From IMG/VR virus record IMGVR_UViG_3300045988_084830, positions 1 to 56,658 of that record: 56,658 bases of DNA; one strand, 5' to 3'. Below the pieces are notes generated by a model. That model was given only the letters and a program-made list of their open reading frames with translations. It had not been told where the DNA came from and made no database searches. Both the position numbers and the translations under genes were made by a program. Shown piece after piece: positions 1-51,340 of the stretch; within the stretch, counting starts at the first letter, position 1; every line of letters begins with the position of its first letter. This DNA is from a virus.

Positions 1-119
1 CTTTTTTTTGGAGAACAGTTTCGCCTATAAAATTCTTCATAGCATCGCTAAACAGATTTTTGTAATCATTGTTAAGCCAATTTCGGATTTCAGATGCTCC
101 ATCATCGTATCTAGGAACA
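1..119. repeat. Terminal direct repeat, left copy (circular-closure overlap)
   Basis: Base-for-base identical to 56540..56658. A minus-strand ORF reads continuously across the junction. Confidence 0.95.
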
Positions 120-13813: not shown

Positions 13814-13883
13814 ACGCGGAAGCCGGATTTGAACCAGCGACCTCTTGGCAACCAAGCGAGCTACCTGACTGCTCCACTCCGCG
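13814..13883 (-). tRNA. tRNA-like element resembling initiator tRNA-Met, with a truncated anticodon arm (5-bp stem, 3-nt loop)
   Basis: Hand fold: acceptor CGCGGAG/TTCCGCG, D arm GAGC-AGTCAGGTA-GCTC, variable loop AGGTC, T arm GCTGG-TTCAAAT-CCGGC. The anticodon arm is only CTTGG-TTG-CCAAG. Total length 70 nt. Confidence 0.5.
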
Positions 13884-41530: not shown

Positions 41531-41691
41531 TTTTGTTCCACTCCTCTTTGGAATTTTTTGACAATACAGTTATATCACATCTCGCTGTTTCAATGAAATA
41601 GCGACTTTTTTCAATTATTGTTTCACATTTTGAACAATATATCAGTTAAATTACTTTGCTTTTGTATCATTTTGTCGAAAGAGGGGTATTT

Positions 41692-42285
41692 ATGGATGAT
41701 TATAGGATACGAGTGGCAAAAGCGTTAGAGATAGCAAGAGCAAAATCCGGGCTTAGCCAACAGAAGCTTGCGGACAAAATGGGTGTAGGCCGGACATCCA
41801 TTTTTCGTTACGAGCAAGGGACAATGACCCCAGATGCTCCTACCATCATAAAGTGGTTTGTGTGCTGCGGTGTTGCGGCCAAGCCGTACATAGACACCTG
41901 TTTGCATCCTGGCTTATTGGAAAGTCTTGCTGGCGATGCCAGCACCGAAAGAAAGAGGGATGCGCTGATAGAACATATCAAAGACGCCCATCCACAGGAA
42001 ATCGACCTGCTTTGCTATCTGATCTATGGCAATCACGGTTCAGATTACCTTGCCGTTCTGTGCGAAATGGTAGCCAACCTTCACACGACTTTGCGTGATC
42101 GTGTGTCCGTCTGCCGCACCGTCACCGGCCATTATGAAATGGCACAGGCCACCAAAACCGACCCAGACCCAGACGGAACACAGCCTAATATGCAGATTTT
42201 ATATCAGGCACAGGACTGTGGGGAAGCTTCGGCCATGAAACGAAACGATTCTTATACCATCAACGAGGAAAACATTTTGCGCTGA
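41692..42285 (+). CDS. XRE-family regulator with a 130-aa C-terminal domain
   Basis: GLSQQKLADKMGVGRTSIFRYEQG is an HTH_3 pattern. ATG at 41692 follows GAGGGG. Confidence 0.7.
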   Translation: MDDYRIRVAKALEIARAKSGLSQQKLADKMGVGRTSIFRYEQGTMTPDAPTIIKWFVCCGVAAKPYIDTCLHPGLLESLAGDASTERKRDALIEHIKDAHPQEIDLLCYLIYGNHGSDYLAVLCEMVANLHTTLRDRVSVCRTVTGHYEMAQATKTDPDPDGTQPNMQILYQAQDCGEASAMKRNDSYTINEENILR

Positions 42286-42327: not shown

Positions 42328-42515
42328 CTCCACTTTTTGTACACAATAGACCTGTTATAAATATAGTTTTGGGTTGTCATTTTGTCCCCTATAGAGTCGT
42401 AAATGATGGATTTTTGCGGGTGTAATTAACGAGCTCTCGTAAAATTTTCGTTCATCAAAGAGCGACTTGTCAATTCGTCCCCTATTGGTGTGATTGCACT
42501 CCATTTTCTGTACAC
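42328..42515. repeat. Two inverted iteron copies (CTCCA(C/T)TTT(T/C)TGTACAC) upstream of oriV
   Basis: Copies at 42328..42344 and 42499..42515 are the reverse complement of the direct iterons. Confidence 0.6.
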
Positions 42516-42579
42516 GATAAAACCGTTAAGTAGGTTATAGGGCTTGATAGACGTTTCTTATTCAGCAAAAAAGTTGTCG

Positions 42580-42588
42580 TTTTCCACA
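42580..42588 (+). promoter_or_regulatory. DnaA box-like TTTTCCACA
   Basis: One mismatch to TTATCCACA. It is followed by AT-rich DNA holding a tandem TATCTCTTGTT repeat (around 42653..42676). Confidence 0.45.
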
Positions 42589-42693
42589 ATCTGCCCGTTG
42601 AAGAGAAGAAATTGTTGAAAATGTATCGTCGTCACTATTTGATGATGATTATTTATCTCTTGTTTATCTCTTGTTTATATATATAGTAAGAAC

Positions 42694-42796
42694 GTGTACA
42701 AAAAGTGGAGCATTGTGTACATAAAGTGGAGGAACGTGTACAAGAAGTGGATGGTATTGTGTACAAAAAGTGGAGTATCGTGTACAGAATGTGGAA
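42694..42796 (+). repeat. Five direct iterons GTGTACA(A/T)(A/G)AAGTGGAG at 21-23 bp spacing (plasmid-type oriV)
   Basis: Copies start at 42694, 42715, 42736, 42759 and 42780, with partial copies overlapping the rep promoter. Confidence 0.85.
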
Positions 42797-42830
42797 GTCG
42801 ATTGTTGAAAAATAATTGTGTACAGAATCA

Positions 42831-42859
42831 TTGACGTGTACACGATACAGTGGTATAAT
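42831..42859 (+). promoter_or_regulatory. rep promoter TTGACG-17-TATAAT (TG-extended) overlapping an iteron-like site
   Basis: Hexamers and spacer counted directly. GTGTACACGATACAGTGG lies within the spacer. Confidence 0.6.
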
Positions 42860-42884
42860 AGGGTAGAAGAAATGAGGTGATGCA

Positions 42885-43976
42885 ATGCCAGAATTGACAG
42901 GAAACAATCTTGTCGAAAAGAGCAAGGCATTGGTTTGGGCGAAGTTTACGGACTACACAGCAGGCGAGCTTCGGCTGCTTGAGGTCTATCTGAGCCGTAT
43001 CAATCCGAGAGACCCAGAAAGCTCTAACGTGTCGTTTACGCTGGCTGAATATTGCAAGCTGCTGGATTTGAAGCTCAATTCAAAGAACTTGAAGTCGCAG
43101 GTTAAGCACTTTTTGGGCAACGTGGTTTCAGTACCACTGAATGCAGATGGAACAGAATATGTGATGTATCCGCTGTTCACAAAGGCAGAGGTCAAGTACA
43201 ATCGAGAATCCTTGTCCTATGACGTTTCAATCAACTGTAATCCTGACTTGCGGCCTGTGTTTTTCGACATTGCAAGAAGCGGCTACGTCAAATACCGTCT
43301 GCGCTATACGATTGGGATGAAACAGCAAGCATCTATTCTGATGTACAGCATGATTCGAGATTGGATGAATCGCTCTCTAACATCGAACAAGATTGGTTTG
43401 AAGCAGCTGCGTGACCACTTGGGGGCAAACGATGTAAGTTATGACGACTTCCGGGCTTTACGCCGCAGAGTTCTTGAACCAGCAGTGGAAGAGATAAGCA
43501 ATGTTTCAGACATCGTCGTTGACTTTGAAAAGATTTGCACAGGGCGAAAGGTAGTAGCAGTTGAGTTTCGATTCGGGTGCAAATCCAAGCAGCCCGTCAT
43601 AGATGCCGATTCTAGCGAGGTTGATTGTGAGACGAATTCCAAGCAGGAAATCAAAAAAGCCGCAAGAAAGCCCCGCGCAAGCGGATACGAAGGGTACGAC
43701 TGGTCTGTGTGCGATGCTCTATCCGTTCAAGAGTGCATCGAGGTTGCAAAGGTTGTCGAGGTAAAGATGATGGAAGAACACCCATCTATCAAGCTGCCGA
43801 AGCGGAGAGATGCGGTCTATGACATCGTAAAGGCCGCGTGTGCAGATATTCTTTCAATCAGCCGTGACCCTTGGCCTGATTACCCGAAGCGGTATCTGAT
43901 TGGCAGCTTGAAGAAAGACGGTGCGATTGAAGAGTATCTTCCGGCTTTCTATGAGATTGATGCATTGCAAAAGTAG
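42885..43976 (+). CDS. rep: Rep_3-family plasmid replication initiator
   Basis: The N-terminus NNLVEKSKALVWAKFTDYTAGELRLLEVYLSRI matches the Rep_3 signature. Iterons lie immediately upstream. Confidence 0.8.
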   Translation: MPELTGNNLVEKSKALVWAKFTDYTAGELRLLEVYLSRINPRDPESSNVSFTLAEYCKLLDLKLNSKNLKSQVKHFLGNVVSVPLNADGTEYVMYPLFTKAEVKYNRESLSYDVSINCNPDLRPVFFDIARSGYVKYRLRYTIGMKQQASILMYSMIRDWMNRSLTSNKIGLKQLRDHLGANDVSYDDFRALRRRVLEPAVEEISNVSDIVVDFEKICTGRKVVAVEFRFGCKSKQPVIDADSSEVDCETNSKQEIKKAARKPRASGYEGYDWSVCDALSVQECIEVAKVVEVKMMEEHPSIKLPKRRDAVYDIVKAACADILSISRDPWPDYPKRYLIGSLKKDGAIEEYLPAFYEIDALQK

Positions 43977-43977
43977 T

Positions 43978-44025
43978 CAGATACAGCACATTATGCAGAA
44001 TGAGCACAGTGGGCAGATAAAGCAG
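43978..44025 (+). repeat. Three 12-bp direct repeats CAGA(T/A)(A/T)NAGCA(C/G) at 18-bp spacing
   Basis: CAGATACAGCAC, CAGAATGAGCAC and CAGATAAAGCAG, upstream of the parA-containing operon. Confidence 0.5.
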
Positions 44026-44036
44026 AAAGGAGCGGT

Positions 44037-44306
44037 ATGAAGAAGCAGGAAATTGCGTGGTATTCCGTTAAAGATGATGGGATGCCAACACCAGAAATCA
44101 TTGAAAGAACGAAAGGTCTGTTCTTGTGTTCGGTAAAAACGGTCTATCTGAAAGATGAATCTATAACGGCAATAAACACGGTAGCGGCATTTATCAAGAA
44201 CGGAGAATTTTTGAATACATCTTTTGAAAAGTTAAGTCATTCTTCAAGCAATAGTTTTATTGCAAGAGTGGTTGCATGGGCAGAGCTTCCGATGTACGAA
44301 GAATAA
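44037..44306 (+). CDS. Hypothetical protein (DUF551-like end)
   Basis: 89-aa ORF preceded by an SD (aaaggag). Confidence 0.5.
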   Translation: MKKQEIAWYSVKDDGMPTPEIIERTKGLFLCSVKTVYLKDESITAINTVAAFIKNGEFLNTSFEKLSHSSSNSFIARVVAWAELPMYEE

Positions 44307-44321
44307 AGAAAGGATGATAAA

Positions 44322-44573
44322 ATGGAAAAAGTTCAAAGTTCCGTTTTATACAGAGAAGTGGCGAAATTGCGAAACGGCTTTGATTGTAACAGAGTTGAGT
44401 TTTTCACCGTTGGGGACGGAATTGATACTCCAATTCATGTAATGGTCGGTTCTCGTGGACACGGCACTGTAGAACCAGACGAAGCAATTGAGGAAGGAAA
44501 GGCGCTAATTGAAGCTGGTAAGGCAGCAAAAAAATTTAAGTACAACGGTTATTTTGTGATTTGGGGAGAATAA
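44322..44573 (+). CDS. Hypothetical protein
   Basis: 83-aa ORF. Confidence 0.5.
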   Translation: MEKVQSSVLYREVAKLRNGFDCNRVEFFTVGDGIDTPIHVMVGSRGHGTVEPDEAIEEGKALIEAGKAAKKFKYNGYFVIWGE

Positions 44574-44575
44574 AA

Positions 44576-45346
44576 ATGGCAAAAATCATAGCTGTCGCCA
44601 ACCAGAAGGGCGGCACAGGAAAAACCACCACAAGCACCTGTCTGGCTGGTGCGTTGCAGTTGCTCGGAAAGAAAGTCCTGCTGGTGGACTGCGATGCCCA
44701 GTGCAACGCAACAGACACCTACGGCGCACAGACAGTGGACGTGTGCACCCTGTTTGATGTGATGACTCGGCAGGGCACTGTCGAAGAAGGAATCCAGCAC
44801 TGTGAAGCTGGCGATATTCTTCCATCTGACCCAGACTTGAAAGATATTGATGAGCAAATGGTAAGGGATATTGGCAAGAACTTTCGGATGCGTGAAGAAC
44901 TGGAGCCGGTATCTAGCCAGTATGATTACATCATTCTTGACACACCACCGCAACTTGGATTGATGCTTGTAAATGCTCTGATCGCAGCCAATAGCGTTAT
45001 TGTGCCGATGACCCCCGACCGCTATTCTGTCGCTGGTTTAAGCCAATTGTCACAGACCTTGAGCGGCGTTCGCAAATATTACAATCAGAATTTGAAGATT
45101 GAAGGCCTGCTCCTGAACCAGTACAAGAGCCGTGAGAACCTGTCCAAAGAGGTTGTGGAGCAGCTTCCTGTGATTGCACAGAGCATGGGAACAACGCTGC
45201 TGGATGTGAAGATTAGACCGTCTATGGGCGTTCGTAAAGCACAGGCAGAGCGGCACAGCCTGTTTAGTAGCGACACGGCAAAGAGTACCAGCGCAGAGGA
45301 TTTCAAGGCGTTGGCAAAGATTATTGTAGAAGGAGAAGAAAAATGA
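44576..45346 (+). CDS. parA: ParA/Soj-type partition ATPase
   Basis: MAKIIAVANQKGGTGKTTT carries the deviant Walker A motif. 256 aa. Confidence 0.9.
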   Translation: MAKIIAVANQKGGTGKTTTSTCLAGALQLLGKKVLLVDCDAQCNATDTYGAQTVDVCTLFDVMTRQGTVEEGIQHCEAGDILPSDPDLKDIDEQMVRDIGKNFRMREELEPVSSQYDYIILDTPPQLGLMLVNALIAANSVIVPMTPDRYSVAGLSQLSQTLSGVRKYYNQNLKIEGLLLNQYKSRENLSKEVVEQLPVIAQSMGTTLLDVKIRPSMGVRKAQAERHSLFSSDTAKSTSAEDFKALAKIIVEGEEK

Positions 45347-45870
45347 GCGGTGGACACTGGGATTATCAAAATGACAGCCTTGCAAATGCTATTTACCAGC
45401 ACTGCTACCCAGATTATGGCCTTGCAGATGAACGGGTAAAAGAGCTTTCGATTATTGCACGAAAAGAAAATCCGCTTGGAGACAAAGATTTGAGTATGCT
45501 TCTGTACGATTTGCTCTGTGTTTTACATAGCTGTGATTGGTACAGAAGTGGCGACATTGATAAAGAGCAGTATAAGAAAGATGTACAGTATTTCAAGGAA
45601 AAATGGTTATGGAGCAAGGAATGGATTAGAGTGAGCGACCACTACCCGGAAATGATGTATGTAAACGGAGAGTTTCAGAGCAACCCCGTTTTCGTTGCTT
45701 CACCGTTGACAGGAACAGATATTGCACAATGTTACTTCTATCCAAAAGACGGTGGAAAACCTATTTGGAAAACAGAATGGTCTGGTAATCTTGGAGTGAC
45801 ACATTGGATGCCGCTACCAGAAGGTCCATCGTTTGACGATTTGGATTTTGAGGAGGTTGATGTAGAATGA
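45343..45870 (+). CDS. Hypothetical protein with a DUF551-like C-terminus
   Basis: The motif ...THWMPLPEGP. Confidence 0.5.
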   Translation: MSGGHWDYQNDSLANAIYQHCYPDYGLADERVKELSIIARKENPLGDKDLSMLLYDLLCVLHSCDWYRSGDIDKEQYKKDVQYFKEKWLWSKEWIRVSDHYPEMMYVNGEFQSNPVFVASPLTGTDIAQCYFYPKDGGKPIWKTEWSGNLGVTHWMPLPEGPSFDDLDFEEVDVE

Positions 45871-46439
45871 AGTCAACCAGCAAAAAAACATCCGGCTTGT
45901 TGGGCGGGTTTGACTTCCAGCCTGTTTTTTCGGAACAGACATTAAGCCGAAGTGAGCCAAAGGAAGAAGAAGTAAGCCAAGCAAAGCCGAACGAAGCCGA
46001 ACAAGCACTGATTAAGCCCAGTGAAGCTACAGACAGCCGTACACAGCCTAATGAAGCACTGTTAAGCAGTATTAAGCCGAAGCAAGCCAAAGACAGCGAA
46101 ACGCAGCCGAACAATGCCGTAGTAAGCGAAAGTAAGCCAAAAAAGCTGAAAAAGGTGAAAGAAGTTCAGCGTCTTATCGAACAAGGCAATGTTCCAGGTG
46201 CACTAGCCGAAGCTGGCTTGACAAAGAAAAAAATCCCGATGCCAGAATCGCATCAGGGCGTTGCAAGTGGTGACGGCAAGCGTTCAAAGCGCATTACCAT
46301 CCTTATGAGTGAGGAAGAGCGCAAGTACATCAACCGTGAAGCCAGACGGCACGGAATGACGATTGGACAGTTCGTGTATGCTCTGTCAGTTGCAGCGGCA
46401 GAGGGGATGATTGAATTGGAGGATTTCTTGGAGGATTGA
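45867..46439 (+). CDS. RHH-type DNA-binding protein with degenerate KP.EA peptide repeats (candidate ParG-like centromere binder)
   Basis: C-terminal KRITILMSEEERKYINREARRHGMTIGQFV is an RHH pattern. The N-terminal half holds tandem (S/I)KP(N/S/K)(E/Q)A repeats. Confidence 0.55.
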   Translation: MKSTSKKTSGLLGGFDFQPVFSEQTLSRSEPKEEEVSQAKPNEAEQALIKPSEATDSRTQPNEALLSSIKPKQAKDSETQPNNAVVSESKPKKLKKVKEVQRLIEQGNVPGALAEAGLTKKKIPMPESHQGVASGDGKRSKRITILMSEEERKYINREARRHGMTIGQFVYALSVAAAEGMIELEDFLED

Positions 46440-46470
46440 CGATAAAAGTTAAGATTTAGGAGGGTTTTAT

Positions 46471-46719
46471 ATGCTGATATTTGAAAAGAATCTGTTTTAT
46501 GACTGCACCAAAAAAGAACTCGAAAAGATTTCGGAGGCCATTAAAAAAGACCAAAGCAATGGAGCGCTCACTTTTGGAATGGAGGCTATGAAAGTTCAGA
46601 TTGAACGAATCCGAGAACATTTTAGTGTTCCGGGAAAAGCATTTGATCGTGTATCTGCTTACAATCTCGCCAAAGAAGAACTGTATGATGAAATCGCGGA
46701 ACGATATTTTCAAATCTGA
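46471..46719 (+). CDS. Hypothetical protein
   Basis: 82-aa ORF preceded by an SD (taggagg). Confidence 0.5.
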   Translation: MLIFEKNLFYDCTKKELEKISEAIKKDQSNGALTFGMEAMKVQIERIREHFSVPGKAFDRVSAYNLAKEELYDEIAERYFQI

Positions 46720-46749
46720 TCAAAGCTAATAAATTTAGGAGGGTTCGTA

Positions 46750-46950
46750 ATGAAAAAAGCGAATGGTAGATATATGCAAACAGAATGTGACCGTTGTGGG
46801 TTCACTGTTCATATAGACGATACAAACAGAGCTCTACTTCATGGATGGGGCTGGAGGAAAGATACAGGTGACCTTTGCCCGGAGTGTTATGCAGAGTATA
46901 AGAAGATGGTGCTTGAATTCAATGCGGAAAAACGTCGCGCCGTCCGATAA
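46750..46950 (+). CDS. CDRCG zinc-ribbon protein (paralog of 27364..27567)
   Basis: It shares CDRCG...WGWRKDTGDLCPECYAEYK with the early-operon copy and is preceded by an SD (taggagg). Confidence 0.6.
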   Translation: MKKANGRYMQTECDRCGFTVHIDDTNRALLHGWGWRKDTGDLCPECYAEYKKMVLEFNAEKRRAVR

Positions 46951-46976
46951 AAGCTGAGATTTAAGGTAATGTAATT

Positions 46977-47129
46977 ATGAACAGCGTACTTATTGATCGG
47001 AAAGTAGCAAAGAAAATCGATTCTATTTTTGAGCATCCGAATGAGATATACTCAGTATATTTAAAGTCTGGTGATGCTGTCTGGCTATATGGTAAAGTTG
47101 AATTATATGAATTTTTGCGTAGCCTATAA
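46977..47129 (+). CDS. Hypothetical 50-aa protein
   Basis: Manual ORF MNSVLIDRKVAKK... with a weak SD. Confidence 0.25.
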   Translation: MNSVLIDRKVAKKIDSIFEHPNEIYSVYLKSGDAVWLYGKVELYEFLRSL

Positions 47130-47140
47130 AAATTAAAACA

Positions 47141-47177
47141 GAAAAACCCCTGTGTAGTTGTAATGACCGCACAGGGG
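47141..47177 (-). terminator. Intrinsic terminator (minus strand)
   Basis: CCCCTGTG...CACAGGGG followed by TTTTTCTGTTTT on the minus strand. Confidence 0.4.
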
Positions 47178-47191
47178 AGAAAGGAAACAAC

Positions 47192-47365
47192 ATGAACAAG
47201 AAACCGATTGATAAAGAAAAGAAATCAAACATCAAATGCGAACATTGCGAATATTGGACAGGGTTATTGTGGGACGAAGCAAGATGTAAACTAAACAGCC
47301 AGCCGAAACAATATTATCAAAGATGCAAAAACTTTTCGTGGAAAGAAACTTTGCTTTATAAATGA
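47192..47365 (+). CDS. Hypothetical 57-aa Cys-containing protein
   Basis: Manual ORF MNKKPIDKEKKSNIKCEHCEYW... preceded by an SD (gggagaaagg). Confidence 0.35.
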   Translation: MNKKPIDKEKKSNIKCEHCEYWTGLLWDEARCKLNSQPKQYYQRCKNFSWKETLLYK

Positions 47366-47366
47366 G

Positions 47367-47410
47367 AAAAACCCCCTGTACGGAATTATAACCGTATAGG
47401 GGGTTGCTTT
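47367..47410. terminator. Bidirectional intrinsic terminator between convergent modules
   Basis: 12-bp stem CCCCCTGTACGG/CCGTATAGGGGG flanked by an A-run and T-rich sequence. Confidence 0.6.
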
Positions 47411-48517: not shown

Positions 48518-49387
48518 TTAGCAGCCGCAGCAGTTCACGCCCATGTTGGGGTTTGCCACCTGATAAGCGGGAATCGGACGAGGATTGACCCGGTTCAGGA
48601 TGGTATCAGTCTGCTGGGACATCACGGTGGTCAGAAGCGCATTCTGACGATCCTGAGAAGCCGCGAACTTTAAGCTCTGGTTCTCAGCGGTCAGAGTAGC
48701 AATCTTGTCCTGCGTGAAGTAGTCCATCATGCTGCGGAAGTTGGCGTTGCAGTTGTCCACGATGGCGCGGGCGTTGTCTGCGATAGCCTGACGGGTAGCG
48801 CAGTCCTCCGTTGCGATGGTGTACTTCAGGTCGCCGATGAGCTGTTTGTTCTCGCAGCAGCAAGATGCAAGCTGCGTCTGGATGGCGGTCTGACCCGCCT
48901 GCCGTGCGTTGCCCTCCTGCATGATGGCAAGGCTGATGGCGTTGTCGCCGTTGGACACGCTGCGTTCCAGACCGTTCACCAGCTGTGCGTTCTGGTAGCC
49001 AAGCTGACAGATGGCGCTGTTCACGCCCGCAAAGCCGTTCGCGATGTTGGCGTTGATGCCATTGATCTGCGCCAGCTGGTCATAGCCCAAAGAGCAGATA
49101 CCGCTCTGGATACCCGCCAGAGAGCGGGAGGTATCCTGCTGATAGAAGCCCTCAGACAGAGCCGCGCGGGTGTCGTTACCGCCCTGACCGGATGCGCCAG
49201 TGCCGACCAGATAGGGGATGTAGGCGTTCATGCCATTGTCGCCGCCGTTGCGCCCGTTGCCGTAGTTGCCCCAGCCGAAGATGATGGCAAGGATGATAAC
49301 AGCCCACAGACCTTCGTTGCCGAAGAATCCGCCGTTGTTATTGCCGCCGTCCTGCCCAGCCAGATAGCCAGTTGCAAAATCGTCCAT
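48518..49387 (-). CDS. Cargo operon gene 4: hypothetical protein (MDDF start, Gly/Asn-rich, single TM, CCC motif, ends NCCGC)
   Basis: 289 aa with an SD (aaaggag). TM segment LWAVIILAIIFGW. 11 Cys. Confidence 0.6.
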   Translation of the reverse strand: MDDFATGYLAGQDGGNNNGGFFGNEGLWAVIILAIIFGWGNYGNGRNGGDNGMNAYIPYLVGTGASGQGGNDTRAALSEGFYQQDTSRSLAGIQSGICSLGYDQLAQINGINANIANGFAGVNSAICQLGYQNAQLVNGLERSVSNGDNAISLAIMQEGNARQAGQTAIQTQLASCCCENKQLIGDLKYTIATEDCATRQAIADNARAIVDNCNANFRSMMDYFTQDKIATLTAENQSLKFAASQDRQNALLTTVMSQQTDTILNRVNPRPIPAYQVANPNMGVNCCGC

Positions 49388-49527
49388 AACAAAACTCCTT
49401 TCAGTTTTGCGTTATGCTATCCCACCGCCGTATGCGATGGGCGAAGCCAAACAAATGCGGTTTTTGTCAAGTCCGCAAAACTGAGAAGCGTTTCGCTTAG
49501 AGGGATGCTTATTTTAGGGTTGTTAAG

Positions 49528-49689
49528 TCAGCTTGGAGGGTTGTCCTTTTTATCTTTTGGGTCATCCCAATTTTTGCCGGCAGCACCGAAAATAAAGCCA
49601 AGCATTAAAGGAACCCATATTTTGTCATTGCCGCACAGATTGTTGATGTCAAAATCTTTTTCGGAATGGCTGTTTTCAAAATCATCCAT
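49528..49689 (-). CDS. Cargo operon gene 3: 53-aa TM peptide (MDDF start)
   Basis: Manual ORF MDDFENSHSEKDFDINNLCGNDKIWVPLMLGFIFGAAGKNWDD... preceded by an SD (GAGGAGG). It falls below the ORF-track cutoff. Confidence 0.45.
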   Translation of the reverse strand: MDDFENSHSEKDFDINNLCGNDKIWVPLMLGFIFGAAGKNWDDPKDKKDNPPS

Positions 49690-49701
49690 TGTAAAGCCTC
49701 C

Positions 49702-49953
49702 TCACTTCGGAAGCGTCAAATTCAGGACGCTTGCCAGCTGGTTCAGGTCGATACCACGCTCTTTGGCGAGGTTCTGCGCCATCGTTCGGAGTTGTACTTC
49801 GTTTTTTCCCTGAATCAAGTTCAAGCCCTGCATGATAGGAGCATTCTGCCCGCTCAACTGCTGGATAAGCCCCATCGGGTTTTGTCCGGCACGAGCAAGG
49901 TTTGCAAGCTGCATGATAGGGCTGTGAGTAATCATATCAAACGGAGAGGGCAT
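49702..49953 (-). CDS. Cargo operon gene 2: hypothetical protein
   Basis: 83 aa, with an SD (aaaggaga). Confidence 0.55.
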   Translation of the reverse strand: MPSPFDMITHSPIMQLANLARAGQNPMGLIQQLSGQNAPIMQGLNLIQGKNEVQLRTMAQNLAKERGIDLNQLASVLNLTLPK

Positions 49954-49956
49954 CGC

Positions 49957-50475
49957 TTATTCTCCTTTCTTTGCTGCGGTAGCGGGCTTCGAAAAGCTCT
50001 TCTGCCACTTTTCCAGTTCATCCAGCCGATGCACGAGGGTGTTGTACTGCTCAATAGGCACATATTGCTGTGTCGGTGCAGCGGTCTGCTGTGCCTGCTG
50101 TGCTTGCATCTGTCTCCACGCTTCCGGGCTGTAAAACTCTAACACGTCAGATTCACAAGTATTTGGATTCAGACGTTTGCAGTAGATGACACCACTACGC
50201 AAATCCGGGCAATACGTCCATCTTCCGTACAGATCAGACGGTATCGCCAAAAATTCTTCCCTGCTGGAAACAGGTCTACCAAGCAACCAGCCGCCATCTT
50301 GTGCTGACTGCTGAACAGGCTGCTGCCCATTCATCGGCTGCGGACGCTGCGGTTGTGCCTGCTGCATCTGCGTGTTCGGCAGGGGAGTGGAAAGACCTAC
50401 CGTGCCCATGCTGCCGTAAGGATTGACAGGTTGCTGCGGAACGTAAGGCGCTCCGGGTGTTGGATAATAGCTCAT
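49957..50475 (-). CDS. Cargo operon gene 1: hypothetical protein with a Gln/Pro-rich N-terminus
   Basis: ATG at 50475 follows AGGAGGG. MSYYPTPGAPYVPQQPVNPYG.... 172 aa. Confidence 0.6.
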   Translation of the reverse strand: MSYYPTPGAPYVPQQPVNPYGSMGTVGLSTPLPNTQMQQAQPQRPQPMNGQQPVQQSAQDGGWLLGRPVSSREEFLAIPSDLYGRWTYCPDLRSGVIYCKRLNPNTCESDVLEFYSPEAWRQMQAQQAQQTAAPTQQYVPIEQYNTLVHRLDELEKWQKSFSKPATAAKKGE

Positions 50476-50548
50476 AATACATCCCTCCTGATGTGACCAG
50501 TGTACCGCATCGGCAGAAAACGAAAGACAACGAAGGTACAACGAAGGA

Positions 50549-50592
50549 CAAAAAAAGAAAAGCGCCCACACGGAGAAATCCGCATGAGCGCT
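50549..50592 (-). terminator. Leader terminator T2
   Basis: AGCGCTCA...TGGGCGCT followed by TTTCTTTTTTT on the minus strand, about 75 nt before the start of gene 1. Confidence 0.6.
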
Positions 50593-50678
50593 TAACTGTA
50601 AGGATGCACACATTGGAGTGCAATGCTAAGATATCACATAATCCAATATATGGCAATGCTTTCGACAAAACTAGTGCG

Positions 50679-50714
50679 AATAAAACAAAATCCACCAGCC
50701 TAAAGCTGATGGAT
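50679..50714 (-). terminator. Leader terminator T1
   Basis: ATCCATCAGC-loop-GCTGGTGGAT followed by TTTGTTTTATT on the minus strand. Confidence 0.6.
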
Positions 50715-50912
50715 TATAAGTGAGCGAGTAATCGCCCTGCCACCGAAGTGGCAAAATTGTGTCTCCCGCATGGTACGCACTGTAAGTAGGCGGGCGGGAG
50801 ACTGGTCGGCGCCTATCTGGCAACCGCTTTTTTCATTCCCAGATAAAGCACTGGGCTAGCTGGCAAATATCCACCCTGTTGCGCTTCTTCGAGAGGCCGG
50901 GTGGATTTCGTT
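50679..50912 (-). ncRNA. Structured leader RNA or sRNA of about 230 nt (class unassigned)
   Basis: It is bounded by a TG-extended -10 promoter and terminator T1. It contains several 8-9 bp hairpins, including UGCCAC-UUCG-GUGGCA. No ORF is present. Confidence 0.45.
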
Positions 50913-50918
50913 GGTGTT

Positions 50919-50927
50919 ATTATACCA
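50919..50927 (-). promoter_or_regulatory. Extended -10 promoter TGGTATAAT
   Basis: The minus strand reads tttgTGGTATAATaac, immediately after the upstream terminator. Confidence 0.5.
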
Positions 50928-50936
50928 CAAATCGTG

Positions 50937-50972
50937 CAAAAAGAAAAGCGGCAGACCCGAAAGCCTGCCGCT
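50937..50972 (-). terminator. Intrinsic terminator after the sigma-region-4-like gene
   Basis: AGCGGCAG...CTGCCGCT followed by TTTTCTTTTT on the minus strand. Confidence 0.65.
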
Positions 50973-51016
50973 TCAATGCGTTTCGTGAGAAATCGCACCC
51001 AATTAAGATTATGATA

Positions 51017-51340
51017 TCACACATCCAGCATTTTTTCAATGCTTTTTAGCCGGTATCCTATCGCCGTCCGGCTGTAATGCGTCTGCGCTGCAATGTCCGG
51101 CAGCGGGAGCCGCTCAACGTACCGCAAAAGAGCTATCTTTCGGTCTACCCTCCCAAGCGGTGCGTTTTTGATGGCGGCGGTCATCTGCTGTCGGTCAAGT
51201 CCTTGCAGCGCAGCGGGCAGCACTACACGAGCCGCCGCCACAGGCAGCACCGAGCCAAAAAGGCTGCGGCAGCTGTCCGGCGTTGCGCTTAGATACGCAT
51301 TTTGCCATATTAAGACCGCAAATTTGCAATTTTTTATCAA
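51017..51340 (-). CDS. Sigma-70 region-4-like / DUF1492-like HTH regulator
   Basis: C-terminal RKIALLRYVERLPLPDIAAQTHYSRTAIGYRLKSIEKML. The start codon is uncertain (TTG at 51340, or an internal ATG). Confidence 0.45.
   Translation of the reverse strand: MIKNCKFAVLIWQNAYLSATPDSCRSLFGSVLPVAAARVVLPAALQGLDRQQMTAAIKNAPLGRVDRKIALLRYVERLPLPDIAAQTHYSRTAIGYRLKSIEKMLDV

Follow-up and report, generated by a model that had tools for sequence, protein, structure and literature searches.

A string of candidate small RNA genes, one with diverged abiF-type hairpins, behind the lysis module of a gut phage-plasmid

The window considered here is the whole of IMG/VR virus record IMGVR_UViG_3300045988_084830 (56,658 nucleotides), which is a human-gut phage-plasmid, circular and ~56.6 kb in size, and not an integrated prophage. 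We are concerned with a non-coding block on its minus strand (positions 50,476 to 50,936 and the adjoining upstream terminator), which lies directly 3' of the lysis module and before five genes that carry no functional annotation (genes 1–5). A sequence-only reading had described this block as one long structured leader of the downstream operon, with two terminators in series and conditional read-through, and had offered a riboswitch, an attenuator or a stand-alone small RNA as its nature. All the features that it listed are present, each at or within 5 nt of where it had been placed. The best-supported description of the region is nevertheless as a string of small self-contained non-coding RNA genes rather than a leader. 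The features, all on the minus strand, are as follows, in the order in which they would be transcribed (ORF, open reading frame; SD, Shine–Dalgarno sequence).

51340..51017: sigma-region-4-like ORF, ending just upstream of T0
51011..51039: P0, promoter-like TTGAAA-17-TGaTATCAT, within the 3' end of the sigma-like ORF and overlapping its stop codon
50937..50974: T0, intrinsic terminator after the sigma-like ORF (stem 50974..50945; 13 bp, seven GC pairs, U-tail)
50919..50927: P1, TG-extended -10 TGGTATAAT, with a predicted start near A50912
50867..50907: H1, abiF-motif-like hairpin 1, AUCCACCC...GGGUGGAU, with an 8-bp stem and loop GGCCUCUCGAAGAAGCGCAACA, ~7 nt past the predicted start
50803..50866: H2 module, a CCCAG...CUGGG hairpin (50855..50838) and a small GC hairpin
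50761..50802: H3, abiF-motif-like hairpin 2, GUCUCCCGC...GCGGGAGAC, with a 9-bp stem, inner CGC/GCG helix and 3' bulge UACCAU
50722..50753: H4, UGCCAC-UUCG-GUGGCA (50753..50738), and H5, GGGCGA-UUAC-UCGCUC
50679..50715: T1, intrinsic terminator closing unit 1 (stem 50715..50689, 12 bp; U-tail to 50679)
50628..50656: P2, promoter-like TTGCCA-17-TGaTATCTT
50549..50622: predicted unit 2 RNA, ~70 nt, consisting of a 5'-terminal hairpin UGCAC-UCCAAUGU-GUGCA, a linker and T2
50593..50560: stem of T2, intrinsic terminator with a U-tail to 50549
50517..50548: three direct repeats YYTTCGTTKT with a 10–11-bp period (TRF period 10, 3.2–3.6 copies)
50497..50511: conserved box GATGCGGTACACTGG, of which TAYACT is a candidate -10 of gene 1
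49957..50489: gene 1 including its SD (AGGAGGG, 50489..50483; ATG 50475), 172 aa, P/Q-rich, phrog_21718; the downstream neighbour, outside the RNA units

Unit 1 runs from P1 to T1 and its predicted RNA is ~230 nt long. The TG-extended -10 lies exactly where it had been reported (50927..50919), after the upstream terminator, and the same extended -10 (TGGTATAAT) is used by the rep gene of this replicon. The long hairpins named earlier, among them CCCAG...CUGGG and the UUCG-tetraloop hairpin, were all located. When folding energies were scored against dinucleotide shuffles the region folded far better than the shuffles did, with z = -5.96 for the whole 440 nt, z = -5.08 for the P1–T1 segment and z = -6.17 for the P2–T2 segment (dG -32.7 kcal/mol); the stretch from the repeats to the SD (z = -0.16) is unstructured as RNA. 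T1 and T2, given previously as 50714..50679 and 50592..50549, are borne out, and together with T0 they rank within the top five terminator-like hairpins of the 16.6 kb scanned. Both are left intact in minimum free energy (MFE) and centroid folds of the region, in which no competing antiterminator fold was seen. The three tandem repeats ahead of the SD of gene 1 were recovered at 50548..50517. The second promoter that had been suggested, TTGCCA-17-TATCTT, exists and is TG-extended; its true place is 50656..50628, the earlier position having been 5 nt too high. P0, a small hairpin (50998..50976) and T0 could make up a third mini-unit of ~65 nt (50937..51039), and in relatives that have no T0 a P0-type promoter (TGATAAAAT) directly precedes H1. 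It was also observed that the predicted 5' end of the unit 1 RNA (AACGAAAUCCACC, 50912..50900) has 13 nt of complementarity (one G.U) to the 3' arm and tail of T1 (GGUGGAUUUUGUU, 50696..50684), and that the H1 and T1 stems are near-copies of each other.

The description of the first segment as some 230 nt of ORF-free RNA stands, and no credible ORF was found in units 1 or 2, nor any ORF after H3 in the window. A hidden small protein was considered and rejected: the ORFs at 50671..50823 and 50813..50998 (minus strand), like those on the plus strand, merely cross the hairpins and terminators and have no SD, and the mosaic breakpoints among relatives coincide with hairpin borders, which also counts against a hidden protein.

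Evidence that the block is modular comes from its relatives, of which 80 loci were fetched via gene 1 and 112 via the H1 loop (individual loci are referred to by L numbers). The distance from the sigma-like ORF to gene 1 varies between 166 and 2802 nt in the 80 loci fetched via gene 1. In both sets the order of the modules is fixed and their presence is variable. The first half consists of an optional T0, P1, H1, then H2, a paralogous hairpin Hx or nothing, an optional tRNA with a spacer, and H3. After H3 comes the H4/5–T1 module, a small ORF with a terminator, or other terminators that include the DUF3800-VIII RNA; an optional P2 and T2 follow, and after T2 an optional opposite-strand gene for an XRE-type helix-turn-helix (HTH) protein, the repeats and gene 1. 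Among the 71 loci chosen by gene 1 alone, T2 is present in 92%, the repeats in 87%, H1 in 73%, H3 in 66%, P2 in 51%, the H4/5–T1 module in 17%, the opposite-strand HTH gene in 15% and the tRNA in 10%. T2 and the repeats co-travel with gene 1, the repeats doing so whatever sits upstream. H1, H3, P2 and the H4/5–T1 module are present in 17–73% of the relatives selected by gene 1, which is not the obligate linkage to a downstream gene expected of a riboswitch or attenuator. One relative (L027) has neither P1 nor P2 and carries just a terminator, T2, the repeats and gene 1. In a distant relative, with 34% identity in gene 1 and 37% in gene 3, lysis genes, two terminator-like hairpins and genes 1–3 follow one another and none of the modules is present; its small upstream ORF has no detectable kinship to the sigma-like ORF.

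The promoters behave as units of their own in these comparisons. Across ~110 loci the -10 of P1 persists in four or more upstream contexts that are unrelated to each other: it reads TGGTATAAT behind T0 or behind another coding sequence, and TGATAAAAT or TGTAAAAT where it lies at the end of the sigma-like ORF. P2 (99 loci, 51 distinct sequences) has two alleles with unrelated 17-nt spacers, both of which keep TTGNCN, the 17-nt spacing and TGnTATYTT. The hairpins are exchanged or compensated in a similar manner: the H2 slot holds the third abiF-like hairpin Hx or is empty, H2 of L017 is the compensatory variant CCUCG/CGGGG, one pair of H4 runs through A-U, G.U and G-C among relatives, and the 5' hairpin of unit 2 has its stem swapped for GCUUC/GAAGC around a kept CAAUGU loop. 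(In the MAFFT alignment the two alleles of this last hairpin do not pair in the same register, so that the swap has no formal weight as covariation.) Many relatives have ORFs of 55–87 aa behind H3, which differ from one relative to the next and one of which has two predicted membrane helices, and the cargo genes inserted elsewhere encode zinc-ribbon, HTH or unknown proteins, mostly on the opposite strand. Since each promoter has its own terminator, T1 and T2 are not serial terminators of one transcript; and since the modules are variable and a distant relative has none of them, the stretch is not an obligate leader of gene 1. The notion of one long leader with conditional read-through at terminators in series is thus not supported, nor is that of a riboswitch, no Rfam riboswitch family having matched.

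The sole non-terminator match of the region in Rfam is that of H1, over its full length and at a permissive E-value, to RF03085, the abiF RNA. The architecture of RF03085 comprises an outer stem of ~6 bp, a 1-nt spacer, an inner 3-bp helix, an 11-nt apical loop CUCUCAACGAU and a 3' bulge of ~6 nt. H1 has its 8-bp stem, an inner helix with two of three pairs, loop CUCUCGAAGAA (8/11 identical) and bulge CAACA; H3 has its 9-bp stem, the inner CGC/GCG helix with three of three pairs, loop CUACUUACAGU (~5/11 identical) and bulge UACCAU. Hx, the paralogue in relatives, scores 26.8 bits against RF03085 (E 0.01) and matches the consensus without a difference over CCCGC-AAGCCUCUCAACGAUGC. In L335 and L372 the same promoter, H1 position and flanks enclose another stem (ACCCGAC/GUCGGGU) with the canonical loop, so that H1 is tied to the abiF motif by orthology. 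In L349 and L399 H3-type flanks (C-GCC...GCG-UACCA) stand 20–50 nt ahead of an Abi_2 gene, and in L258 and L289 a canonical GCU-type hairpin stands 21–35 nt ahead of one (confirmed by Pfam at 1e-36 and 5e-56). Exact-word scans of IMG/VR for the canonical loop returned more than 200 loci from many environments, with ~170 hairpins whose complementary stems are highly diverse. In these viral copies the inner helix covaries between AGC/GCU and CGC/GCG, and the 3' bulges include CAACC and UACCA(C/U), like those of H1 and H3.

Some further observations concern the viral copies themselves. Hairpins of abiF type with loop AAGCCUCUCAACGAUGCUCAAAC or CGCC...GCG variants are very common in viral contigs (L203–L322, L324–L419), and in ~20 motif-bearing viral loci an ORF of ~185 aa resembling a metallophosphatase lies ~300 nt downstream of the hairpin. 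Three unrelated large gut phages (L340, L363, L403; contigs >100 kb) carry arrays of two to three abiF-like hairpins, which include one with the stem of H1 (AAAUCCACCC/GGGUGGAU) and are followed by a terminator and a zinc-ribbon gene; a GCCNN-UUCG-NNGGC-AGGGCG hairpin, resembling H4/H5 of the window, precedes them.

Unit 1 is generally the most conserved segment of its neighbourhood, non-coding as it is. From H1 to T1 it is 95.7–97.4% identical to the window in colinear relatives, in which the sigma-like ORF is 81–84% identical (with an outlier at 42%), gene 1 86–95% (mostly 86–90%) and the stretch from the repeats to the SD 80–85%. At ~96% identity this colinear set holds too little variation for covariation to show. 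H1, H3 and Hx share the loop motif GCCU-N9-(A/U)GCG-N-A, on which an ungapped alignment was anchored. In it the stems of all three pair in one register, 90% of cells being paired and seven of ten pairs changing on both sides, and the covariation score is 0.469, compared with 0.188 in shuffles (0/500) and 0.02–0.20 in slid controls. For 77 distinct matches to our own covariance model (R1) it is 0.362 versus 0.142. In the window R1 finds H3 (59 bits) and H1 (58.7 bits), the next best score being 9, and no other copies; the 188 copies that it detects in 926 kb of related loci all lie inside this cassette. The 16-nt core of the H1 loop is nearly invariant over more than 100 variants.

No Abi_2 protein, the family to which the AbiF toxin belongs, was detected among the 76 ORFs of the window (Pfam, PADLOC), nor in the window or 202 related loci with four Abi_2 protein queries (tblastn and phmmer); the RNA of unit 1 is therefore an orphan. 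Among canonical abiF-type viral loci an Abi_2 homologue occurs in the fetched flanks of 5/120 and 3/96, that is 8/216, and these counts are lower bounds because the loci are partial and just four tblastn queries were used. On this census most abiF-type copies in viruses seem to be orphans. The literature searched yielded no account of phages that carry such orphan abiF-type RNAs and lack the toxin.

The characterisation of AbiF, an Abi_2-family HEPN RNase, and of its RNA antitoxin (RCd22, AbiFr) dates from no earlier than 2025; the two make up a type III-like toxin–antitoxin system of the abortive-infection kind. Saunier et al. 2025 (PMC12373285) describe RCd22, an RNA of a C. difficile prophage, with a SigA promoter, motifs at +9..41 and +61..95 and a terminator. 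In cis this RNA holds down the transcription of abiF via premature termination; in trans it binds the AbiF HEPN toxin directly and so neutralises it. Its action needs an intact stem and tolerates compensatory changes, its locus is found within the lysis module or immediately behind it, and in AbiF systems a Rho-independent terminator stands between the antitoxin RNA and the toxin gene (PMC12373285). According to two reviews (PMC12737573, PMC13064643), the AbiF dimer of a Prevotellaceae system binds two RNA copies that block its active site, AbiF and its RNA are proposed as ancestors of Cas13 and crRNA, and the antitoxin role of AbiFr is cited to Zilberzwige-Tal et al. 2025. An unrelated phage hairpin, from the cos region of sk1, has been reported as an AbiF inhibitor (PMC13064643).

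At the sequence level, set against the published RCd22 layout and the phiC2 sequence, unit 1 resembles RCd22/AbiFr in its sigma-A-type promoter, in a first hairpin ~8 nt past the predicted start, in its intrinsic terminator and in its place just after the lysis genes. Its two hairpins are likewise in tandem and appear to follow the same plan of outer stem, short inner helix, apical loop of 11 nt and 3' bulge, with departures in the loops and in the inner helix of H1; it shares the loop GCCUCUC.A.GA.GC with the Rfam consensus, the stems being free to covary. It differs in having no abiF/Abi_2 gene next to it or anywhere in the element and in hairpins that fall below the Rfam gathering score (H3 having no score). 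In contrast to RCd22, H1 and H3 are dissimilar and stand ~65 nt apart with another hairpin between them (19 nt in RCd22), H4 and H5 are extra hairpins, and a second small RNA unit lies downstream. The suggestion that the first unit is a stand-alone small RNA, which the sequence-only reading had held as its alternative, is supported and can be refined to a sub-threshold, toxin-less relative of RCd22/AbiFr.

The following scheme is consistent with these data. The block would be a mosaic of promoter–hairpin–terminator units directly 3' of the lysis genes, unit 1 being an independent, probably constitutive, non-coding RNA gene with the diverged abiF-type hairpins H1 and H3 as its core, and unit 2 (P2 to T2) a second small RNA. 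The toxin of unit 1 would have been lost or never present. Because the AbiF-type layout is kept and the toxin gene is missing, we propose that the RNA may act in trans, as an orphan antitoxin or decoy, on AbiF-family toxins of the host or of competing mobile elements, with counter-defence or anti-addiction as the outcome, by analogy with pseudo-ToxI and RNA anti-CRISPRs. Pseudo-ToxI of phage PhiTE is reportedly a phage mimic of a defence system's own RNA (said to have been described by Blower et al. in 2012), and the same is said of RNA anti-CRISPRs, which are solitary repeat units (reportedly the work of Camara-Wilpert et al. in 2023). The likeness is that of a mobile element which carries the RNA part of a defence or toxin system under its own promoter and no protein part; the difference is that those cases have been shown experimentally, with closely matching RNAs, whereas the function of unit 1 is predicted and its hairpins are diverged.

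That unit 1 is a stand-alone abiF-type RNA gene, and not a leader, we regard as likely. For the package as a whole, namely an orphan abiF-type antitoxin RNA within a block of RNA units and possibly directed against AbiF, the odds seem to us about even. Its transcription, binding to AbiF and role against defence are predicted from sequence, and neutralisation of AbiF as its actual function is a tentative assignment, for which the balance tilts somewhat to the negative.

Several points weigh against the proposal. H1 scores 18.9 bits against an RF03085 gathering score of 37 (E 1.8 in 901 nt, 0.39 in 191 nt), and H3 is not reported by RF03085 at E<=10. The apical loops depart from the consensus at 3/11 positions in H1 and ~6/11 in H3, and the inner A-U pair is gone in H1; binding of any AbiF by H1 and H3 is therefore no more than a prediction. 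The covariation rests on essentially three paralogue classes and a few alleles, with low divergence within each class, and one mid-stem position of H1 varies uncompensated. Recent lateral spread of the module could partly account for the high identity of unit 1. The census of orphans, made by tblastn with four queries on partial loci, undercounts toxins. Lastly, the search for a host, which might show an AbiF of its own, gave one contig of a metagenome-assembled genome (MAG), and this is the element itself.

Should orphan RNAs of this kind neutralise AbiF, they would constitute a new RNA-based anti-defence mechanism beside pseudo-ToxI and RNA anti-CRISPRs. The frequency of such hairpins in viral contigs would then be accounted for, and there would be a handle on the unexplained DUF3800-associated RNAs. 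There is also a lesson for annotation: what looks like a 'structured leader with tandem terminators' behind a phage lysis module can in fact be an array of small RNA genes.

Of the other explanations, the one that survives best is that unit 1 is a decaying remnant of an AbiF toxin–antitoxin locus, in which the toxin was lost and the RNA persists without function. We think this unlikely. It would account for the absent Abi_2 gene, for the drift of H1 and H3 from the consensus to below the gathering score and for the highly variable module content; however, a remnant should hardly be more conserved than the coding genes that flank it, keep its promoter in different contexts or maintain its stems by compensatory change, as is seen also at the orthologous H1 position. 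Moreover, ORF-less versions are common and not sporadic, and orphans dominate viral contigs generally.

A cis-acting leader or attenuator, in which transcripts from P1 and P2 normally stop at T1 and T2 until a ligand, protein or antiterminator lets them read through into genes 1–5, is a little less probable again. Two strong terminators do stand upstream of gene 1 on the same strand, the interval from T2 to gene 1 yielded no canonical sigma-A promoter, RCd22 itself works partly by premature termination (PMC12373285), and the distant relative too has two terminator-like hairpins before its gene 1 homologue. The complementarity of the 5' end (50912..50900) to the arm and tail of T1 (50696..50684) might be taken for an attenuation switch, but it only mirrors the likeness of the H1 and T1 stems and shrinks to 9 nt in most relatives. 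Against such a leader, H1 (73%) and P2 (51%) are dispensable for gene 1, L027 has neither promoter, an opposite-strand HTH gene interrupts the path between T2 and the repeats in ~15% of relatives, the MFE and centroid folds keep T1 and T2, and no riboswitch matched.

We give no greater weight to a base-pairing small RNA, whose C/U-rich loops (CCUCUC) would pair with SD regions of host or phage mRNAs, the likeness to abiF being incidental or ancestral. The near-invariant 16-nt loop core in more than 100 variants, the resemblance of CCUCUC to an anti-SD and the stand-alone promoter–terminator build all suit this view. Yet the 56.6-kb genome offers no complementary stretch of >=14 nt, its one match of 13 nt is A-rich (~0.6 such matches being expected by chance), and the loop motif is shared with RNAs known to act by protein binding. 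Least probable of all is that unit 1 serves as antitoxin or regulator of an unrecognised, non-Abi_2 toxin of the element: genes 1–5 are of no known function, 55–87-aa ORFs follow H3 in many relatives and the 3' arm of H3 (GGGAG) is SD-like, but gene 1 is found without the RNA, the RNA stands beside many different neighbours, the small ORFs differ between relatives and the window has none after H3.

A number of other candidates were tried and rejected. At Rfam gathering thresholds, a known riboswitch or leader was sought and only a tRNA elsewhere in the window was returned; the permissive matches to trpB, ctRNA_pGA1, GibS, atoC and Xoo2 were all driven by the terminators. An antisense regulator, or an RNA of the P1 c4, P4 CI or N15 CA type, found no target of >=14 nt (one A-rich 13-mer), and complementarity to the start of gene 1 is at best 9/11. 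Pairing of the 5' CAACGAA with the UUCGUUG repeats showed no covariation in relatives. A DNA-level operator, a single-stranded DNA origin or an attC-like site fits poorly with loops that are more conserved than stems and G.U pairs that favour the transcribed strand, and the loops of 22–24 nt are unlike CRISPR repeats, which disposes of a CRISPR-repeat mimic.

Returning to the reading of the block as a string of RNA genes, gene 1 is probably under its own control region, separate from the RNA units, and T2 is proposed to insulate it. TAYACT is near-invariant while both of its flanks are swapped in some loci. No -35 that matches TAYACT and no canonical sigma-A promoter could be recognised from T2 to gene 1, and a sporulation-sigma or sigma-A promoter for gene 1 was rejected for want of a convincing -35, the box not recurring elsewhere in the window. 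The repeats, spaced by a helical turn, and the TAYACT box look like an activator-dependent control region, of which the three repeats would be the protein-binding sites.

Two observations on relatives touch this region. In ~15% of them (L020 2300–2800, L046, L078) the interval from T2 to the repeats contains an opposite-strand gene, whose 165-aa product has an XRE-type HTH at its C-terminal end; the shared control region of that locus holds the inverted repeats AAACTGATACAA / TTGTATCAGTTT, and there is a terminator-like hairpin on the gene-1 strand. To judge from this arrangement, the protein is probably a dedicated repressor of the gene-1 operon. In L025, L038, L012 and others, four tandem 11-bp repeats TAAKCAAGNTT lie between T2 and the YYTTCGTTKT repeats and resemble a second array of protein sites.

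The cassette of the relatives also bears the DUF3800-VIII RNA and tRNA or tRNA-like genes, which fits an RNA counter-defence island. The T1 slot may hold other terminators, including a long hairpin that is the DUF3800-VIII RNA (RF03075, 66–78 bits; L003 2797–2860, L052 2726–2789 and others), and in L003 (6120–6192, minus strand), L014 and L025 the other strand carries a skipping-rope RNA (RF02924, 51–59 bits) ~3.1 kb downstream of where gene 1 starts; neither has an Rfam match in the window itself. DUF3800-associated and skipping-rope RNAs are terminator-ended RNAs of unknown function linked to particular proteins, and motifs of this sort with 3' terminators are short, highly conserved, rarely in 5' untranslated regions and often in prophages (Weinberg et al. 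2017, PMC5737381). The units described here are like them in being short conserved structured RNAs that end in intrinsic terminators, and DUF3800-VIII shares their cassette in relatives. A likeness can also be drawn with phage morons, reportedly insertions of promoter, gene and terminator between core genes (an account said to go back to Juhala et al. in 2000). As with morons, the block has its own promoter and terminator, lies between the lysis module and the next core genes and is variably present in close relatives; it is unlike them in that the window carries RNA only and no protein-coding cargo, some relatives having small ORFs or a tRNA in the slot.

In some relatives the slot between H1/Hx and H3 holds tRNA-Val(GAC) or tRNA-like genes (L158 1733–1804; L093 3491–3563; L155, L156, L190). 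The tRNA-like genes have an altered or shortened anticodon loop and are missed by ARAGORN (Rfam tRNA ~44 bits), and a conserved spacer of ~85 nt comes after every tRNA or tRNA-like gene. Faced with an anticodon nuclease, such genes could serve as replacements or as decoys.

A broader idea, which we put forward as speculative and rather doubtful, is that gut phage-plasmids and many phages keep a modular, promoter-driven, RNA-only counter-defence island made of shuffled orphan RNA components. These might include several specificities of abiF-type hairpin, the DUF3800-VIII RNA and tRNA or tRNA-like decoys, and would neutralise effectors of the host or of rivals. Were this so, counter-defence would be the main viral use of the abiF motif, ~96% of the 216 IMG/VR loci being without an AbiF gene nearby.

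The element as a whole also encodes portal, capsid, baseplate (Gp10-like) and GH25 endolysin proteins. No tyrosine integrase was detected in the window; one ORF has a serine-recombinase (Resolvase) N-terminal domain. Its maintenance functions are grouped in a phage-plasmid zone at 42330..46439, with a repressor gene beside it.

41656..42285: XRE-type repressor, beside the replication zone
42693..42795, plus strand: five direct iterons CGTGTACAAAAAGTGGAG preceding rep, with inverted copies near 42330 and 42498
42885..43976, plus strand: Rep_3-family initiator, with its own promoter TTGACG-17-TGGTATAAT
44561..45346, plus strand: ParA, in the maintenance zone

Genes 1–5 matched only families of unknown function in Pfam, NCBIfam, PADLOC and PHROGs, and genes 1 and 3 matched only hypothetical proteins when compared with annotated phages (tblastn). 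Homologues of gene 1 are abundant in human-gut viromes (566 matches in IMG/VR). Relatives are nearly absent from species-representative genomes, where the sole match is one contig of a Clostridiales MAG, itself the element.

Some minor features of the window may be recorded. The tRNA at 13814..13883 (minus strand), between the terminase and portal genes, scores 49.2 bits in Rfam (gathering score 29), and ARAGORN reports no tRNA in the window. Several short unannotated ORFs with good SDs lie at 49387..49702, between genes 2 and 3, and at 46439..47409, the convergent zone after the par genes, which is closed by a strong plus-strand terminator-like hairpin (47370..47405).

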